A stretch of 64,000 nt of DNA from assembly GCA_004297465.1 (NCBI GenBank), contig SCUB01000020.1:38183-102182 (forward strand), given 5' to 3'. Position numbers and translations under genes: made by a program. Under the pieces are notes generated by a model, which searched no databases, was not told the origin of the DNA, and saw only the letters and a program-made list of their open reading frames with translations. Shown here in pieces: positions 4,330 to 49,233 of this stretch; within the stretch, counting starts at the first letter, position 1; each line of letters opens with the position of its first letter. Origin of the DNA: Xanthobacteraceae bacterium. Its GTDB lineage: Bacteria > Pseudomonadota > Alphaproteobacteria > Rhizobiales > Xanthobacteraceae.

Positions 4330-5226
4330 TCAGCCGACGTCGATGTCGAGCGCGACGTCGAAGTTCGGCGCGGAATGGGTGAGCGCGCCGGCGGAGGCGT
4401 AATCGACGCCGGTTGCCGCGATCGCGGCGATGGTGTCGCGGGTCACGCCGCCCGAGGCTTCCAGCTTCAACAGCCCGCCGTTGATGTGCACGGCCTTGCG
4501 CAGCGTCTCGATGTCCATGTTGTCGAGCAGCACCGCGTCGGCGATGCCAGTCGCGATCACCTCGCGCAGCTGTTCGAGCGTGTCGACCTCGATCTCGATC
4601 TTGACCAGATGCCCGGCGACGCGCCGCGCCCGCTCCAGCGCGGCGCGCACGCCGCCCGCGACCGCGATGTGGTTGTCCTTGATGAGAATGGCGTCGTCGA
4701 GCCCGAAACGATGGTTGAAGCCGCCGCCGCAGCGCACCGCGTATTTCTCCAGCGCGCGCAGGCCGGGCGTGGTCTTGCGCGTGCAGCAGATGCGCAAATT
4801 CGTTCCCGCTGTCTCGCGCACATAGCTCGCGGTCAGCGTGGCGATGCCCGACAGGCGGCCGGCGAAATTGAGCGCGGTGCGTTCGGCACCCAGCACGGCG
4901 CGGGCGTCGCCGATGATGGTGAGGAGCCGGGTGCCGGCGGTCACGCCTGCGCCGTCGCGCTGATGGGCTTCGATGGCGATGTCGGGCGCAAGCCTGCGCA
5001 ACGCCGCCACCGCGAGCGGCAGCCCGGCGATGACGCCATCCTGCCGCGCCACCATCACCGCGCGGGCGATCGCGTCCTCGTCGATGGTGGCGATCGAGGT
5101 GATGTCGCCGGCGCGGCCGAAATCCTCGTCGAGCGCGCGCGCCACCGCCTCCTCGATGACGAGCGGCGACAGGAAGGCATCCGTGAACAGCAGCGACTGC
5201 GGGGTGGTCATGTCGCGCGAGGTCAT
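4330..5226 (-). CDS. nadC: nicotinate-nucleotide pyrophosphorylase (quinolinate phosphoribosyltransferase)
   Basis: Translation matches the NadC pattern (…RTALNF…GIATLT…TRKTTPGLR…[22 protein letters not shown]…). The ATG at 5226 overlaps the nadB TGA (ATGA). Last gene of the nadA-nadB-nadC operon. Confidence 0.9.
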
Positions 5227-6821
5227 GCGAAGGCGCGGCCGCGCGGGGCTGCTGCGGTGAAGGAGGCGGCGGCGGCGCGCACGCCCGCGAGCGTGAACAT
5301 CGAGCGGTGCGCAAGGGCCGGGTTCTCGGCGGGATAATCGGAGCGGAAATGCGCGCCGCGGCTTTCGCGGCGCTGCCATGCGGCCACCGCCACGATCAGC
5401 GCGGCGGTCGCCATGTTGCGCAGGGAGATGTTGGCGGCGCCCGTTTCGAGCGTGGCCAGCGTGCGGATCGCCTCGCCGAGCGCATCGCCGTCGCGGATCA
5501 CGCCGACCTGCGCGCTCATGAGCTGGCGCAGCTCATGCTCGGCGGTGGCCGGCAGCGGCCGCGCGGCGGCCGTCATGGGGCCTGCGATGTCGCCGGCGGG
5601 CGGATGGAAATCGTGGCCGTCGATGTCCTCGGCGATGCGCGCGGCGAACACCACGGCCTCCAATAGCGAGTTCGAGGCAAGGCGGTTGGCGCCGTGCGCG
5701 CCGGTCGAGGACACTTCGCCGCCGGCCCACAGGCCGTCGATCGAGGCACGACCGCGTGCGTCCACCGCGATGCCGCCCATGTGGTAATGCGCCGCCGGCG
5801 CCACCGGGATGAGCTGGCGCGCCGGATCGATGCCGGCGGCCATGCAACTGGCATGGACGGTGGGGAAGGCCTCGGCGAAATGCGCGCCGATCGCCTCGCG
5901 GGCGTCGAGGAAGGCGCCGCGGCCGCTGGCAATTTCCGCGAACACGCCGCGCGCCACGATGTCGCGCGGCGCGAGTTCGGCGAGCGGATGCAGCGCGGTC
6001 ATGAAGCGTTCGCCGCGGCCGTTGACCAGCAGCGCGCCGTCGCCGCGCAGCGCCTCGGTGGCGAGCGGCGCCGGGTCGGCCCCGGTCATGATCGCGGTGG
6101 GATGGAACTGGACGAATTCGGCGTCGGCGATCACCGCGCCGGCGCGCGCGGCCAGCGCCAGGCCGAGGCCGCTGGCCTCGCGCGGATTTGTCGTGACGGC
6201 ATAGAGATGGCCAATGCCGCCGGTGGCGAGCACCACCGCGCGCGACTTGAGCACCACGGCCGGCGCGCCCGGCGTGCCGGTCTTGCGCACGATGAGGCCA
6301 CGCACGGTATTGGCCTCGGCAATGAGGTCCTCGGCGACATAGCCTTCGAGCAGGTGGATCGAGGGCGTCGCCCGCACGGTCTCGACCAGCGCCGCCATGA
6401 TCGCCTGTCCGGCCATGTCGCCGCGCACGTGGACGATGCGCCGCGCCGAGTGCGCGGCCTCGCGCGACACCGCGAGATGGCCTTCGAGATCGCGGTCGAA
6501 CGGCACGCCGTAGCGCAGGAGGTCGTCGATGCGGGCTGCGGCCTCGCGCGCAAGGCCGAGCGCGACCTGTTCGTCGACCAGGCCGGCGCCGACCGCGATC
6601 GTGTCGGCCGCGTGCGCCTCCGGGCTGTCGCCGACCGCGACGGCGGCGGCGATGCCGCCCTGCGCCCAGGCGGTCGAGGCGCCTTCTCCGAGCGGCGCGG
6701 CGGAGATCACGGTGACCGGACGCGGCGCGAGTTTCAACGCGCAGAACAGGCCGGCGAGGCCACCGCCGACGATCAGCACGTCGTCGACGCGGGGCGCGAT
6801 CCTGGAGGAATGCTGGCTCAC
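5223..6821 (-). CDS. nadB: L-aspartate oxidase
   Basis: FAD-binding N-terminus [12 protein letters not shown], plus HYHMGGI and RL.SNSLLE motifs of the NadB/succinate dehydrogenase flavoprotein family. Start is uncertain: GTG at 6821 has an AAGGA upstream, and the ORF extends to a TTG at 6854. Confidence 0.9.
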
Positions 6822-7961: not shown

Positions 7962-8438
7962 GGGCCTGTTTCCTTGCGCTCCTGGTCATCCCATATACTC
8001 ATTTAGAGCACATCAAGGAGCTGAGAAATCCGGCGCATGGCCGGCATTCGGATTCGAACGGTTACAGAAGAACGGTCCTGAACAAGCCTGGATCCGTTCC
8101 CGCCAAGCTTATTCTCAATTGGAGCAAAATATATATAGCATGTTTGGCCAGCCTTCGCCAGAGAGAATCCCAAAGACCGCTGCGACCGTCACGGCGGACC
8201 GCCATGCCGGAAACGCAGAACGGCAGCGATGAGGGCGTAACGGAGACGCTGTCTATGGCCGTTCCGGGTATCCCGGCGCGCTGAAATCGCGCGACGGCGT
8301 CGATGCGTCCCTGGTCCTCGACCGGCCGATTGCATGCCTGCCCTGCGGGCGCGGGCTCCGAAAGCAGGTTCCAATTTGGTCAAGGCCCATTACGTTTGTT
8401 CATTCCCTCAACGATCTGTTTCGACGGGCACCCATCCG

Positions 8439-9704
8439 ATGCCGACCACGGTTTCTGCTTCCTCTGCCGCGCCGCCACCGTCGGGCTGGCGCACGCCCGC
8501 CGTGGTGATCGCCTGCGGCTGCGTCATCGGCCTGCTGGCGTTTGGGCCACGCTCGACCGTCGGCTTCTTCGTGCAGCCGATGACCACGGAGTTTCCCTGG
8601 GGCCGCGACGTGTTCGCGTTCGCCTTCGCGATCCAGAACCTCTTGTGGGGTATCGGTCAGCCGGTCGCCGGCGCGATCGCCGACCGCTACGGAACCGCCC
8701 GCGTGCTGGTCACGGGCGTGCTGTTCTATGCCGCCGGGCTCATGCTGATGGAGGTGTCGAGCACGCCGCTGATGCTCATGCTCTCCATCGGCCTGACGAT
8801 CGGCATCGGCCTGTCGGCCTGTTCGTTCAACCTCGTGGTGACCGGATTCGGCAAGCTTATTCCCGAACACATGCGCTCGATGGCGGCCGGCGCGGCGACG
8901 GCGGCCGGATCGTTCGGACAGTTTCTCTACGCGCCGCTCGGCGTGGCGCTGATCGACGGCGTCGGCTGGAAATCGACGCTGACGGTGTTCGCCGCGCTGA
9001 CGCTGATCGCGCTACCGATGACGCTGGCGATGCGCACGCCGCCGGCGATGGCCACGGCCGGACTGGACGGGGCCGGCCGCGACCTGCCGGCGCAATCGTT
9101 CCGCGCGGCCATGGCCGAGGCGTTCAGCCATCGCTCCTATGTGCTTCTCGTGCTCGGCTTCTTCACCTGCGGCTTCCAGCTCGCCTTCGTCACCGCGCAC
9201 CTGCCGTCATACCTCATCGACCGCGGCCTGCCGGCCGAGGTCGGCGGCTGGGTCATCGCGGTGATCGGCCTGTTCAACATCGCCGGCGCGCTCGGGGTCG
9301 GTTGGCTCGCCAACCGCTATCCGAGCCGCTACATCCTGGCGCTGATCTACTTCACCCGCGCGGTGTCGATCGCGCTGTTCATCAGCATGCCGATCAGCGT
9401 CGGTTCGGCGCTGGCCTATGGCGTGGTCACCGGGCTGACCTGGCTTTCGACGGTGCCGCCGACCTCGGGGCTGGTGGCGCTGATGTTCGGCACGCGCTGG
9501 CTCTCGACGCTGTTCGGCATCGCCTTCTTCAGCCACCAGGTCGGCGGCTTCCTCGGCGTCTGGCTCGGCGGCATCTTCTTCGCGCGCACCGGCTCCTACG
9601 ACACGGTATGGTGGCTCTCGGTGCTGTTCGGGGTGCTGTCGGCGCTCATCAACCTGCCGATCATCGAAAAACCGGTGGCGCGGCAGGCCGCGGCGACGGC
9701 ATGA
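8439..9704 (+). CDS. MFS transporter
   Basis: About 12 hydrophobic segments and a G.IADRYG loop motif typical of MFS. ATG at 8439 chosen over the longer ORF starting at 8334. Confidence 0.8.
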   Translation: MPTTVSASSAAPPPSGWRTPAVVIACGCVIGLLAFGPRSTVGFFVQPMTTEFPWGRDVFAFAFAIQNLLWGIGQPVAGAIADRYGTARVLVTGVLFYAAGLMLMEVSSTPLMLMLSIGLTIGIGLSACSFNLVVTGFGKLIPEHMRSMAAGAATAAGSFGQFLYAPLGVALIDGVGWKSTLTVFAALTLIALPMTLAMRTPPAMATAGLDGAGRDLPAQSFRAAMAEAFSHRSYVLLVLGFFTCGFQLAFVTAHLPSYLIDRGLPAEVGGWVIAVIGLFNIAGALGVGWLANRYPSRYILALIYFTRAVSIALFISMPISVGSALAYGVVTGLTWLSTVPPTSGLVALMFGTRWLSTLFGIAFFSHQVGGFLGVWLGGIFFARTGSYDTVWWLSVLFGVLSALINLPIIEKPVARQAAATA

Positions 9705-38066: not shown

Positions 38067-39986
38067 TCAGGCCAGCCTGATCGCTTCGGCGGGAAAATCC
38101 TTGCCGAGCGCCTCGAACGCCTTGGTGACGATGGCCTTGGCGTCGAGGCCGGCGCGGGCATACATCGCCGCCGGGGTGTCGTGATCGAGATAGACATCCG
38201 GCAGGATCATCGAGCGCACGCGCAGGCCGCGGTCGAGCACGCCGTGTTCGGCGAGCGTCTGCAGCACGTGCGAGCCAAAGCCGCCGACCGCGCCTTCCTC
38301 GATGGTGATGAGGATTTCGTGTTCGCGCGCCAGCCGCAGCACCAGGTCGACGTCGAGCGGCTTGAGGAAGCGGGCGTCGGCGACGGTGGCGGAGAGGCCA
38401 TGCGCCATCAGTTCGTCCGCCGCCTTCAGGCATTCGCCGAGCCGGGTGCCGAACGACAGCAGCGCCACCTTGCCGCCTTCGCGCAGGATGCGGCCCTTGC
38501 CGATTTCGAGCGGCACGCCGTGCTCGGGCATGGTGACGCCAAGCCCTTCGCCGCGCGGGTAGCGGAACGCCGAGGGACGGTCGTCGATGGCCGCAGCGGT
38601 CGCCACCATGTGCACGAGCTCGGCCTCGTCGCCCGCCGCCATGATGACGAAACCGGGCAGGCAGCCGAGATAGGCGTTGTCGAACGAACCGGCGTGGGTC
38701 TGGCCGTCGGCGCCGACCAGACCGGCGCGGTCGATGGCGAAGCGCACCGGCAGCGACTGGATCGCGACATCGTGCACGATCTGGTCGTAGGCGCGCTGCA
38801 GGAAGGTCGAGTAGATGGCGCAGAACGGCTTGTAGCCCTCGGCGGCGAGGCCGGCGGCGAAGGTCACCGCGTGCTGCTCGGCGATGCCGACATCGAAGAT
38901 GCGCGCCGGGAACTCCTTGCCGAACAGGTCGAGCCCGGTGCCCGAGGGCATCGCCGCCGTGATCGCGACGATCTTGTCGTCCTTGCGCGCCTCCTTGACG
39001 AGGCTCGCGCCGAACACGCTGGTGTAGGACGGTGCGTTGGACTTCGACTTGGCCTGCGTGCCGGTGGCGATGTCGAACTTGACGACGCCGTGATACTTGT
39101 CCTCGGACCTCTCGGCCGGTTCGTAGCCCTTGCCCTTCTGCGTGACGACGTGAACGAGGATGGGGCCGAACTCGGCGTCGCGCACGTTCTTGAGCACCGG
39201 CAGGAGGTGATCGAGATTGTGGCCGTCGATCGGGCCGACGTAATAGAAGCCAAGCTCCTCGAACAGCGTGCCGCCGGTGACATAGCCGCGCGCGTGCTCG
39301 ACCGCGCGGGTGATCGCGCTGTCGAGCCGCTTGGGCAATTGCGCGGTGAGCTGCTTGCCGAAATCGCGTAGCTTGAGATAGGTGCGGCCCGAGCCGAGCC
39401 GGGCGAGATAGGACGACATGGCGCCGACCGGCGGCGCGATCGACATGTCGTTGTCGTTGAGGATGACGATCAGGCGCGAGTGGCTGGCGCCGGCGTTGTT
39501 CATCGCCTCATAGGCCATGCCGGCCGACATCGCGCCGTCGCCGATCACCGCGATGACGTGGTCGGGGCGGCCGTCGAGATCGCGCGCCACCGCCATGCCG
39601 AGGCCGGCGGAGATCGAGGTCGAGGAATGTCCGGCGCCGAACGGATCGTATTCGCTCTCGCTGCGCTTGGTGAAACCGGACAGTCCCTTGCCCTGGCGCA
39701 GGGTGCGGATGCGGTCGCGCCGGCCGGTGAGGATCTTATGCGGATAGGCCTGGTGACCGACGTCCCAGATCAGGCGGTCGCGCGGCGTGTCGAACACGTA
39801 ATGCAGCGCCAGCGTGAGTTCGACGACGCCAAGTCCGGCGCCGAGATGGCCGCCGGTCGCCGCCACCGCGTCGATGGTCTCCTGGCGCAACTCGTCGGCG
39901 ACCTGGCGCAGCTGTTCAGGCTGCAGATGGCGCAGCAGGTCCGGCGTCGGCACAAGATCGAGCAGTGGCGTCCTGGTCGGCTGCAT
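38067..39986 (-). CDS. dxs: 1-deoxy-D-xylulose-5-phosphate synthase
   Basis: [19 protein letters not shown]...WDVGHQ.Y.HK, GDGA...GMA.EA.N thiamine diphosphate motif. The ORF extends to 40001. Confidence 0.93.
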
Positions 39987-46170: not shown

Positions 46171-47238
46171 GTGGCTGACTTTTTTGAAATTGATTTCCTG
46201 GACGTCGAGACGAAGAGCAGTGGCGACGCGATTTGTCTGCGCTACGAGCTCAACGGCCTGACCTGCATACACGTTGTCGACGCCGGCTATCAGACGACCG
46301 GGGAGAAGCTCGTCGCGCACATTCGCAAGCATTACAACAACCCGACGTACATCGACCATCTCGTGGTCACCCACAACGACGGCGATCATACCGGCGGCGT
46401 CGAGCAAGTGCTCAAGGAGTTCAACATCGGCGCGATCTGGATGTTGTGCCCCTGGAACTACGCTGCCGAGCTGCTCCATCGCTTCAAGCGCTACTCGACC
46501 GTCGACGGTTTGACGCAGGCCCTGAAGGACTCCTTCCCGAACTTGGCGGCGATGGAGAAGCTGGCGATCAAGAAGGACATCCCGATCTGCGAGCCGTTTC
46601 AAGGCGCCGATATCGGCGCCTTTCACGTCTTGGCGCCGACCCGCGCGCGCTTCCTCGATTTGGTGGTGGCGTCGAACAAGACGCCGGATGAAGCGACGGC
46701 CGCTTTCGACGCGATTCAGGAGGCGTTCCTGGCGACGCAGGTGAAGGCGGTCATGAAGGCGGCGAATTGGGGCGATGAATACTTTCCCGCCGGCGAAACC
46801 AGCACGGAAAACGAGATGAGCGTGGTCCAATACGCCACGCTGTGCGGCAAGAAGATCCTGCTCACCGGTGACACTGGTCGTGCCGGCCTGCAGGAGGTGA
46901 TCGACTACGCGCCGAGTGTCGGACTCATTTTTCCTGGCATCGATCATTTCCAAATCCCGCATCACGGCGGCCGGCACAACGTCAACACCGAGCTGCTAGA
47001 CCAGATCTTGGGGCCGCGGCTGGGGAATCCCCATGCCTCGACCACCTTCACAGCAATCATTAGCTCGGCGAAGGAAGACGAAGATCATCCGCGCAAATCG
47101 GTCGTGCGCGCCATGCATCACCGCGGAGCCAAAGTTATCACCACGGAGGGCCGCGACGTCCGAACGCACCGTAACGCTCCCGACCGCGGCTGGGTGGCCG
47201 TGGACGGCGTTTCGTATCCGAACGAGCAGGAAGACTGA
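46171..47238 (+). CDS. stand-alone ComEC/Rec2-type MBL-fold metallo-hydrolase (gene 1 of the operon)
   Basis: VVTHNDGDHTGG (HxDxDH, codons 46372-46389), a later LLTGD and IPHHGGRHN, as in the ComEC beta-lactamase-like domain. No TM or signal sequence. Confidence 0.8.
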   Translation: MADFFEIDFLDVETKSSGDAICLRYELNGLTCIHVVDAGYQTTGEKLVAHIRKHYNNPTYIDHLVVTHNDGDHTGGVEQVLKEFNIGAIWMLCPWNYAAELLHRFKRYSTVDGLTQALKDSFPNLAAMEKLAIKKDIPICEPFQGADIGAFHVLAPTRARFLDLVVASNKTPDEATAAFDAIQEAFLATQVKAVMKAANWGDEYFPAGETSTENEMSVVQYATLCGKKILLTGDTGRAGLQEVIDYAPSVGLIFPGIDHFQIPHHGGRHNVNTELLDQILGPRLGNPHASTTFTAIISSAKEDEDHPRKSVVRAMHHRGAKVITTEGRDVRTHRNAPDRGWVAVDGVSYPNEQED

Positions 47239-47239
47239 G

Positions 47240-48091
47240 ATGTCGCTTCAAGACATGATCAACAATTTGCTGGACCCTTATTCGCGGCAAGCGCGGCATT
47301 TCCCGGGCCTGCTGTCGGTCTTTCCGCCGCTAATCACCGCTCTGGCTTGGTTCCCGGCGCTGCTGATGTCGAACATCGGCACGATCCTGCTCACGATCAT
47401 CACGTCGTGCGGTCTGCTTTATCTGCTGGGCTCGTGGGCGCGCACGCGGGGTAAGAAAGTCGAAAAGCGCTTGCTGGAGGAGTGGGGCGGCTGGCCGACT
47501 ACGATCTTCCTACGTCACTCAGGGCCGCTGGATCCTTCAACTCGCGGCCGATATCACACATTTCTAGCCGCCAATGTCCCCGGCATCGTCATGCCGAGCG
47601 CGGCGGATGAAGGGGCGGATCCGAAGGCCGCCGACGCAGTCTATGCCTCGGCGGTGAAATGCCTGAAGGAGCTCGTTCGGAAGACGGCTCCACTGGTCGA
47701 CAAGGAAAACGCCCAATACGGCTTCCGCCGCAACCTGCGCGGCATGAAGCCGATTGCAATCACTGTCTGCTTTGTGGCGGCGATCGGCACCTTGCTGGCC
47801 ATTGCACTTACGGCGCCGACATTCATGCCGGCGGATCTTGCGGCGGCGGCGCGCAACACGCCGGTGCCGATCTGGGTCGCGTTCGCCGTCGATGTGGTGG
47901 CGATCATCGGTTGGGTCGCGATCGTCAATGACGCCTGGATACGCCAGGCCGGCGATCAATATGCGGATGCGCTGCTCGCGACGTGCGACCGCGCACCGCC
48001 AAAGAAGGCCGTCGGAGACGGTTCTGCCGCGAGTGGGAAAAAGTCTAGAAAGAACACCGCGAAAGCGGAGAAACAAGAAGGAAACGCGTAA
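47240..48091 (+). CDS. four-TM membrane protein with a Lys-rich C-terminal tail (gene 2 of the operon)
   Basis: Two N-terminal and two C-terminal hydrophobic helices flank a soluble domain of about 110 aa. Tail reads KKAVGDGSAASGKKSRKNTAKAEKQEGNA. The ATG lies 1 nt after the upstream stop, and its TAA shares a base with the next ATG (TAATG). Confidence 0.7.
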   Translation: MSLQDMINNLLDPYSRQARHFPGLLSVFPPLITALAWFPALLMSNIGTILLTIITSCGLLYLLGSWARTRGKKVEKRLLEEWGGWPTTIFLRHSGPLDPSTRGRYHTFLAANVPGIVMPSAADEGADPKAADAVYASAVKCLKELVRKTAPLVDKENAQYGFRRNLRGMKPIAITVCFVAAIGTLLAIALTAPTFMPADLAAAARNTPVPIWVAFAVDVVAIIGWVAIVNDAWIRQAGDQYADALLATCDRAPPKKAVGDGSAASGKKSRKNTAKAEKQEGNA

Positions 48092-49233
48092 TGGTGAAGA
48101 CAACACACTTCCAGGTCGACAATGGCGACATGACTCTGATCGAGCTTGAATCCGGTCGCCGCATTCTGGTCGACATCAAGATTCGCGTTGCAACCGCCGA
48201 CGACGGCGATGAAGACATCCCCCCGGTCGGGGACCAGCTGCGCGAGCGGCTTAAGCGCGACGACAAAGAGCGGTTCTACGTCGACGCTTTCCTGCTGACG
48301 CATCCTGACAAGGATCACATCTGCGGTCTGCGCGAGCACTTCCACCTGGGCGATCCGTCGACTTGGTCGAAGAAGGACGACAAGATTATTATCCGCGAGA
48401 TGTGGTCGTCGCCAATCGTGTTTCGGCGAACGTCCAAGAACCACAAGCTTTGTGATGATGCGGTCTCCTGGTGTGACGAAGCTCGCCGCCGTGTCGCCAA
48501 GTTCAAGGCGGAGGGCGCGCAGGCCGACGGCAACCGCATTCTCATCATGGGCGAGGACGTCGACGGCAAGACTGATGATCTGGGCGCCATCCTGATCAAG
48601 ACGGACGAGGTCTTCTCCAAGATCTGCGGTGTGGTCGACTTTTCCTTTGAAGCACGTCTTTTGGCGCCGATGAAGGCGGACAACGATGACGAAGAAGAGG
48701 TCCTCACCAAGAACAACTCCAGCGTCGTCATGCGGATTGATCTTAAGCTTTGGAGCACCACAAAGGCTCGCTATCTGATCGGCGGTGACGCCGAGGTCGC
48801 GATCTGGGAAAAGCTGTGGGATCGCCACAAGTCTCGCAAGTCCTGGCTCCAATATGATGTCCTCATCGCACCGCATCACTGCTCCTGGCATAGCCTGTCG
48901 TGGGACAGCTGGTCGGATCTCGGCGAGAAAGCCAAGGTTTCGCCGAATGCGCGCAGCGCGCTCGGCCAGCCGCTGCTCGGCGCACTGATCGTCTCGAGCA
49001 GTAAGCCAATCAAAGACGACAAGGATGACCCGCCGTGCATCCGCGCGAAGCGCGAATATCTTGATATTCTCACGGAAGTGAACGGCGAATTCCGTTGCGT
49101 CTGCGATGGTGCGAGCGACGAGCCGATGGAAATCGAGATCCTGTCGGCCGGACCGAAGGTCAAGCGCCTGAAGGTCGCCGCGACCGTTGCGGCAACCACA
49201 GGTCTCGGTAGCCAGCCTTTCGCGCATGGCTGA
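48091..49233 (+). CDS. second ComEC-type MBL-like protein ending in ...GSQPFAHG (gene 3 of the operon)
   Basis: LLTHPDKDHICGL (HxDxDH, codons 48301-48318), GGDAE and APHHCSWHS parallel the motifs of gene 1. The C-terminal residue is Gly (codon 49228-49230). The stop overlaps the start of gene 4 by 8 nt. Confidence 0.75.
   Translation: MVKTTHFQVDNGDMTLIELESGRRILVDIKIRVATADDGDEDIPPVGDQLRERLKRDDKERFYVDAFLLTHPDKDHICGLREHFHLGDPSTWSKKDDKIIIREMWSSPIVFRRTSKNHKLCDDAVSWCDEARRRVAKFKAEGAQADGNRILIMGEDVDGKTDDLGAILIKTDEVFSKICGVVDFSFEARLLAPMKADNDDEEEVLTKNNSSVVMRIDLKLWSTTKARYLIGGDAEVAIWEKLWDRHKSRKSWLQYDVLIAPHHCSWHSLSWDSWSDLGEKAKVSPNARSALGQPLLGALIVSSSKPIKDDKDDPPCIRAKREYLDILTEVNGEFRCVCDGASDEPMEIEILSAGPKVKRLKVAATVAATTGLGSQPFAHG

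Follow-up and report, generated by a model that had tools for sequence, protein, structure and literature searches.

A conserved glycine-terminated tail on the MBL-fold enzyme of a 6A-MBL anti-phage locus as a probable substrate of its E2-E1-JAB partner

The subject of this report is a four-gene operon in a 64,000-nucleotide stretch of DNA (the window) from a Xanthobacteraceae bacterium, positions 38,183 to 102,182 of contig SCUB01000020.1. The third gene of the operon encodes a metallo-beta-lactamase (MBL)-fold enzyme, and the fourth encodes a single chain that joins a ubiquitin-conjugating (E2) domain, a ubiquitin-activating (E1) domain and a JAB isopeptidase domain. The MBL-fold protein ends in a tail that closes with His-Gly, and it is confirmed that this ending is real and conserved across bacteria. 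The tail very probably serves as a handle by which the E2-E1-JAB protein attaches the hydrolase to other proteins. We consider it probable that genes 3 and 4 form a 6A-MBL module that acts like a type II cyclic-oligonucleotide-based antiphage signaling system (CBASS) without the cyclase, with the gene 3 tail as the part that is conjugated. The core of this idea, namely that the MBL protein is the substrate of the E2-E1-JAB protein through its own C-terminal Gly, was first put forward from the letters of the window alone (the sequence-only reading), and it is supported by the comparative evidence described below.

Genes 3 and 4 are assigned to the named 6A-MBL anti-phage system by their matches to curated protein families. 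Gene 3 matches NCBIfam NF058524 (anti-phage 6A-MBL system MBL-fold protein) over residues 6-354 with 422.3 bits (E 1.4e-126), where the curated equivalog cut-off is 220 bits, and gene 4 matches NF058523 (6A-MBL system cap2_3 protein) with 549.7 bits (E 1e-164; curated equivalog cut-off, 320 bits). All four genes are co-oriented on the + strand, almost without spacing, and the whole genome holds one cap2_3 gene. The MBL gene lies beside the triple-module gene, in the same orientation and with an overlap of 8 nucleotides (nt), and the same order is found in approximately 78 of 80 related genomic loci, whose hosts include Alpha- and Gammaproteobacteria, cyanobacteria, Latescibacterota, Binatia, Spirochaetia, Nitrospinota and Acidobacteriota. 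Van den Berg et al. 2024 (Cell Host Microbe 32:1427) reportedly named the 6A-MBL system and tested it in Pseudomonas aeruginosa. Its arrangement is operon type 6a in Table 1 of Iyer, Burroughs & Aravind 2006 (PMC1779556), and later papers cite it as a validated P. aeruginosa defence, among systems active against jumbo phages. The locus is a correct reading of a named defence system and is ordinary for the genome scan; the concept of conjugation in which no ubiquitin-like protein (Ubl) takes part is likewise not new and is already in the literature.

Searches of Pfam, PADLOC and NCBIfam returned no ubiquitin-like family for any of the four operon proteins, nor for three small open reading frames tested at 51649-52326, in agreement with the original claim that the operon has no Ubl gene. 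The same three collections gave no match to a cGAS/DncV-like nucleotidyltransferase (CD-NTase) or a Cap effector for any operon protein and, since such matches are lacking, the locus can be likened to a type II CBASS but is not a CBASS.

Gene 3 is a ComEC-like enzyme with the motif THPDKDH. An AlphaFold2 model built with 24 homologues has a mean predicted local distance difference test score (pLDDT) of 83 and a predicted template modeling score (pTM) of 0.86. Foldseek places it closest to the beta-lactamase-like domain of ComEC (9ic4, 3.9e-12), and next to the phosphorylcholine esterase Pce, PNGM-1 and RNase J, and the fold suggests that the effector is most likely a nuclease or phosphodiesterase. 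By AlphaFold2 and Foldseek, the model consists only of an MBL fold and a disordered tail, with no beta-grasp Ubl. The description of the tail as exposed-looking is supported, as residues 361-380 have a mean pLDDT of ~31 and lie beyond the NF058524 family model, which stops at residue 354. The open frame 48091-49233 does read ...KVAATVAATTGLGSQPFAHG, ending in the Gly codon that had been pointed out (His379, CAT at 49225-49227; Gly380, GGC at 49228-49230; stop TGA at 49231-49233). The end of gene 3 was placed correctly from the start, and the only discrepancy is a trivial one: the tail had been drawn from 49170, one base before the Lys361 codon (49171). If the tail were joined to an acceptor lysine, the remnant left by trypsin would be 19 residues long, VAATVAATTGLGSQPFAHG.

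The proposal called for a Gly or Ala C-terminus in gene 3 orthologues, and such an end is kept at three depths of comparison. Among the closest 120 homologues (at least 60% identity), 74 end in HG, 35 carry HG plus two to seven variable residues (for example, RSDR, GPDDED or KK), nine end in GFA and two appear truncated. At the 80 loci, about 66 MBL genes have an exact HG end, 12 have HG plus one to six residues, and there is a single GFA end and a single broken copy. A wider set of 85 full-length representatives of 50%-identity clusters, extending down to ~30% identity, has terminal Gly in 48 and terminal Ala in 16, with HG (24), YG (16), YA (12) and FG (2) among the terminal dipeptides. An exact [HYFL][GA] end is present in 55 of these 85, as compared to the ~2.3% that composition alone predicts, and another 21 possess such a dipeptide no more than eight residues from the end. 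As judged from these counts, conservation of the terminal Gly is far beyond chance.

In roughly one quarter of HG-type MBL genes, the Gly is followed by one to eight further codons. They form variable, frequently acidic extensions (e.g., GPDDED, DDD, CGSDLA and RSDR), which are reminiscent of the Ubl pre-proteins that are trimmed by a JAB peptidase. Such extensions are found in homologues P0005-P0076 and in loci L026, L027, L033, L037, L038, L041, L042, L047, L049, L051, L058 and L079. A few copies appear decayed or mis-assembled. For instance, the MBL gene of L044 (~5001-6800) continues into the E2 region in a single tailless frame of 599 aa, probably as a frameshift artefact, and the ligase frame of L043 (6106-8457) contains an in-frame stop. 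Two long proteins with the appearance of MBL-E2-E1-JAB fusions (P0153 and P0129) were likewise set aside as frameshift artefacts rather than natural fusions.

Since the gene 4 start codon lies within the tail codons, the His-Gly end and the tail could conceivably be preserved as DNA, for the start codon and ribosome-loading region, and not for the function of the protein. In the window, the gene 4 ATG sits within the His-Gly codons (CATGGCTGA), and some relatives have the same overlap (ATG at -7). The codons themselves make this explanation scarcely credible. The last ten codons were compared in 68 distinct DNA versions from many phyla, with the terminal Gly numbered 0. Gly(-7), His(-1) and Gly(0) are invariant in all 68 at the protein level. 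At the codon level, His(-1) is CAC in 41 tails, which leaves no ATG, and CAT in 27; Gly(0) uses all four codons (GGC 30, GGT 17, GGA 14 and GGG 7), as does Gly(-7). The residues are invariant and their codons vary freely; therefore, selection acts on the protein, and the overlapping ATG does not explain the conservation. Moreover, the H and G stay fixed while the gene 4 start ranges between 7 nt upstream and 16 nt downstream of the final base of the gene 3 stop codon, tails with two to eight extra codons still retain HG, and no Shine-Dalgarno-like sequence lies within the tail codons. The embedded start codon was accordingly rejected as the cause of conservation.

It had also been observed that the gene 3 stop overlaps the gene 4 ATG. 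The overlap is indeed present in the window, where the ATG at 49226-49228 opens the 768-aa E2-E1-JAB frame, and it would give translational coupling, but the overlap itself is not conserved, only the tight juxtaposition. Conservation at the DNA level is, on this sequence evidence, limited to the abutting of genes 3 and 4. A gene 4 start at 49226 is plausible, given that the Pfam E2 domain begins at residue 20 and that relatives with the same overlap begin M-A-D/E.

The strongest comparative argument that the E1 domain reads the tail is that tail class changes together with E1 lineage. HG tails (~70 loci) and one YG tail (L091) precede a fused Prok-E2_A-ThiF-JAB protein. Ala-terminal tails, such as GFA (L021, L081-83 and L084-86), AYA (L095) and GYA (the partial L094), precede a split E2-E1 protein of 575-588 aa with a Prok-E2_B-like or UQ_con-like E2 part, and a separate JAB gene follows wherever the contig extends that far. 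In the GFA type, the MBL core retains 61-65% identity with gene 3, which indicates that the tail was exchanged together with the ligase. In addition, the GFA tails (...PDKPDGFA) resemble the tail of CdnD from Enterobacter cloacae (...KTGRFA), which has been seen adenylated inside the E1 site of Cap2 (bioRxiv 10.1101/2022.03.31.486616). Two representatives of the YA type add little context, as P0122 and P0126 comprise one sequence on a short contig and one at a locus without a nearby E1. The covariation of tail class with E1 lineage goes beyond the published accounts that were found.

The split variant is an observation in its own right. At L021 (4992-9238), L081-L086 and L095, an MBL gene ending in GFA or YA is accompanied by a Cap2-like E2-E1 gene and a separate JAB gene, often with a membrane protein of the gene 2 family. 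As its E2-E1 protein scores 79 bits, far below the NF058523 cut-off of 320, automatic annotation would miss this variant.

Covariation also bears on the suggestion that the tail is a signal independent of E1, such as a degron for housekeeping proteases, a secretion or membrane tag, or an autoinhibitory peptide that rests on the MBL active site. Disordered C-terminal tails often act as degrons or autoinhibitors, ligation of the MBL metal site by the conserved His is possible in principle, and the low confidence of the tail in the model leaves room for intramolecular docking. Such a signal would nevertheless leave unexplained why tail class and E1 lineage switch in step when the MBL core hardly differs. 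Furthermore, tails of the Ala-terminal class mirror that of a proven Cap2 substrate, and the strict need for a chain that ends, or can be cleaved, right after Gly or Ala is the hallmark of E1 substrates. We regard an E1-independent role as improbable.

A bolder version of the conjugation model would treat the tail as a swappable address label for two orthogonal E1 lineages, with H/Y-Gly directing the hydrolase to the fused Prok-E2_A enzyme, F/Y-Ala directing it to the split CBASS-type Cap2, and propeptides removable by JAB in some lineages. The target would then be a dedicated partner, either a membrane protein of the gene 2 family or a phage protein, and conjugation would physically relocate the ComEC-like nuclease rather than merely prime it. 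As a whole, this version seems unlikely.

The gene 4 protein is predicted to be a competent ligase, as all of its catalytic residues are intact. Pfam Prok-E2_A matches residues 20-169 (6.7e-23) and Pfam ThiF matches residues 372-530 (6.1e-06), the latter at 26.0 bits, just under the gathering cut-off of 28.1; the PADLOC models of the CBASS-type E1-E2 and JAB proteins match as well, with JAB at residues 621-730. The E2, ATP-loop, adenylation, E1 Cys and JAMM residues (Table 1) are invariant in 22 diverse homologues, and each was confirmed in the window; E2 Cys114, which had been singled out for mutation, is one of these invariant residues. A direct search of the gene 4 sequence against PDB sequences found no match, and a family profile was needed to reach Cap2 (7to3, 3.6e-08); the profile also matches the peptidase 9ild (1.2e-06) and MccB. 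When a homologue with 54% identity was modelled, its fold matched Cap2 (7to3_A, 5.3e-16, 671 columns), the E1 domain of Cap2 in complex with the C-terminus of CdnD (7tsq and 7tsx) and the Cap3-CD-NTase complex 9ild.

A further alternative is that the E1 domain activates the tail without joining it to a third protein. The product could be a thioester or self-adduct between the MBL and Cap2_3 proteins, by which the hydrolase is held or released, or else a C-terminal thiocarboxylate or an adduct with a small molecule, of the kind made with ThiS/MoaD or MccA/MccB. The E1 domain has similarity to ThiF, MoeB and MccB as well, which adenylate C-termini without protein conjugation; the in vitro readout for CBASS is a cGAS-Cap2 conjugate (bioRxiv 10.1101/2022.03.31.486616); and no target is known for any MBL system (PMC11601596). 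Nevertheless, every aligned fused homologue retains a full E2, with invariant His101 and Cys114, together with an intact JAMM isopeptidase, and a transferable, reversible protein linkage therefore makes the most sense. Nor did Pfam or NCBIfam reveal a rhodanese domain or sulfur-transfer partner in the operon. We accordingly hold activation without a third protein to be quite unlikely.

In the favored model, conjugation of gene 3 protein through its tail would proceed in several steps. The tail would provide ~20 flexible residues, of which the last ten (GLGSQPFAHG) would be the recognition element for the E1 domain of gene 4. This domain would adenylate the carboxylate of Gly380, after which the acyl group would pass to E1 Cys555, then to E2 Cys114 and finally to an amine, presumably that of a lysine, on a target protein. 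The fused JAB/JAMM domain would reverse the linkage and, in relatives whose MBL gene runs one to eight codons past His-Gly, would probably trim the extension to expose the Gly. No ubiquitin-like protein would be needed, as the effector enzyme would itself serve as the “ubiquitin”. By analogy with the conjugation of cGAS in CBASS, this modification may prime, localize or otherwise license the hydrolase during phage infection. We infer the adenylation, the thioester transfer, the isopeptide product, the role of JAB and the effect on the hydrolase from catalytic residues and related systems. A preprint (PMC11601596) states that “MBL pathways” conjugate their enzyme in this way, a point asserted rather than documented there, and the comparative results give testable detail to that mechanism.

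Several points weigh against the model. The approximately one quarter of homologues with residues after the Gly could not be adenylated there unless processed, and a few family members possess other C-terminal domains or lack any motif. In the literature, the primary paper excepted, no MBL-AMP, thioester or isopeptide conjugate of a 6A-MBL protein was found. As a probe of tail docking, at nine loci where the two genes are in frame, a read-through chain was composed by translating the TGA or TAA as Gly, and the MBL-Cap2_3 chain of L008 was folded with AlphaFold2. Overall confidence was low (pLDDT 69, pTM 0.47), and the last ten tail residues reached only ~pLDDT 60.

Table 1. Operon genes and gene 3 and gene 4 features, in window positions.
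Feature	Position	Strand	Details
Gene 1	46171-47238	+	MBL-fold paralogue, 355 aa
Gene 2	47240-48091	+	Membrane protein, 283 aa
Gene 3	48091-49233	+	MBL-fold enzyme of the 6A-MBL system, 380 aa
Gene 4	49226-51532	+	Single-chain E2-E1-JAB protein (Cap2-Cap3 fusion), 768 aa
Disordered C-terminal tail of gene 3, residues 361-380	49171-49230	+	KVAATVAATTGLGSQPFAHG; pLDDT ~31
Conserved motif G-[ILV]-G-x-[QE]-[PA]-[LF]-x-H-G, residues 371-380	49201-49230	+	GLGSQPFAHG in the window
Overlap of gene 3 stop with gene 4 start	49226-49233	+	ATGGCTGA; read from sequence
E2 domain His101, Pro104, Cys114	49565-49567 (Cys114 codon)	+	Gene 4
Adenylation loop G377-x-G-S-x-G-S-K384	50354-50377	+	Gene 4
Adenylation site D401, H408-N409-x-x-R412		+	Gene 4
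E1 Cys555 (GQGCS)	50888-50890 (codon)	+	Gene 4
JAMM site E647, H711-x-H713, S720, D723	51356-51364 (H711-x-H713)	+	Gene 4

For the membrane protein encoded by gene 2, Pfam, PADLOC and NCBIfam gave no family; its two hydrophobic blocks lie at ~residues 23-54 and 169-238. Of the 80 related loci, 57 carry a homologue (27-53% identity), in most cases immediately after the E2-E1-JAB gene (in L001-L080, usually at about 8400-9300), and the family is likely an undescribed third component of 6A-MBL, to judge from this distribution. A conserved, unannotated membrane partner of this kind goes beyond the published accounts that were found. Two readings of gene 2 gained no support when 56 distinct homologues were compared, as the C-terminal tail is not conserved: the Lys-rich tail, proposed as an acceptor, is a local feature, since the last 30 residues of the homologues average 1.9 Lys and often have none, and the small terminal residue, considered as the mark of a second substrate, varies.

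Gene 1 belongs to PADLOC candidate family PDC-M48B (9.7e-155, full length) and matches Pfam Lactamase_B (1.1e-09). It was considered as a second substrate, which is unlikely, as the protein ends in ...PNEQED without a Gly/Ala tail. A gene 1 homologue stands beside a gene 2 homologue in only four of the 80 loci (L014, L026, L046 and L057); L048 has a weak, partial gene 1 match with no gene 2 homologue beside it. At these four loci and in the window (46171-48091), the two genes travel as a two-gene unit, and the unit takes three orientations with respect to the MBL/E2-E1-JAB pair, a pattern suggestive of an optional add-on module.

Other genes recur in the neighborhood. A DUF2235/Tle1-like hydrolase gene lies at 52337-53554 (-) in the window, and similar genes occur within 5 kb of 6A-MBL loci in 11 of the 80 genome loci, and also in L081-83 (loci L001-L004, L006-L011, L021, L036 and L081-L083). 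In L081, the gene adjoins a 363-aa Lactamase_B gene, and a hydrophobic insert lies within the L021 copy (512 aa). A shared island or a functional link may account for the recurrence. Several relatives (L084-L086, 1-3223; L081-L083, 2984-4725; L090, 578-1504; L091, 2311-3194) lie in defence islands or near typical defence regulators, for example BREX genes (PglZ and BrxL), an AbiEii/DUF6088 pair, a WYL/BrxR regulator, or an HTH and M78-peptidase pair resembling CapH/CapP; no regulator gene adjoins the operon of the window. A large serine recombinase gene is located at 55354-56820 (-), 3.8 kb downstream of the operon, and the sequence-only reading placed a tRNA-Gln gene just upstream of gene 1. 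Together, they are consistent with an integrated mobile island that carries defence genes.

Among known systems, the closest is 6A-MBL itself. As in that system, the MBL-fold gene is immediately upstream of the E2-E1-JAB gene, both proteins score above the equivalog cut-offs, there is no Ubl gene, and the window locus sits on an apparent genomic island beside tRNA and recombinase genes. The literature and NCBIfam describe two genes, whereas four are tightly packed here; most relatives have the membrane protein after the E2-E1-JAB gene and lack the second MBL, whereas both are upstream in the window. In contrast, the Ubl-dependent operon types 6d and 6e encode a beta-grasp Ubl, to which no gene of the window operon matches. 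Bil/Bub systems (PMC10557695 and PMC11601596) also encode a JAB peptidase with E1 and E2 activities, but they rely on a dedicated beta-grasp Ubl and on E1 and E2 proteins that are separate and eukaryote-like, none of which are found here. The Bil/Bub peptidase trims pre-proteins to expose a reactive C-terminus and also removes conjugates (PMC11601596), and, by analogy, similar trimming is the likely fate of the 2-8-residue extensions of MBL homologues. In the maturation of microcin C7, the E1-like MccB likewise recognizes the C-terminal residues of a substrate, MccA, that is not a Ubl; unlike gene 4, it works without an E2, a JAB or a protein-protein conjugate, and its product is a peptidyl-nucleotide antibiotic.

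Type II CBASS, in which Cap2, Cap3 and the CD-NTase C-terminus have been described (Ledvina et al., bioRxiv 10.1101/2022.03.31.486616; Jenson et al., PMC10097602; PDB 7TO3, 7TSQ and 9ILD), offers the nearest mechanistic parallel. It differs in that gene 3 is a ComEC-like metallo-hydrolase and not a nucleotide cyclase, with no second-messenger effector here; that the JAB is fused to the E1 and the E2 is Pfam Prok-E2_A rather than Prok-E2_B; and that the tail motif is ...x-H-G instead of the CD-NTase motifs. In both cases, the E2-E1 protein is homologous to Cap2 and the JAB to Cap3, the E2 and E1 cysteines occupy almost matching positions (C109 and C548 in Cap2, C114 and C555 in gene 4), and the partner, an enzyme and not a Ubl, carries a disordered tail that closes with a conserved Gly or Ala. 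The operon would thus fall in a known class of immunity that uses an effector enzyme as its own ubiquitin.

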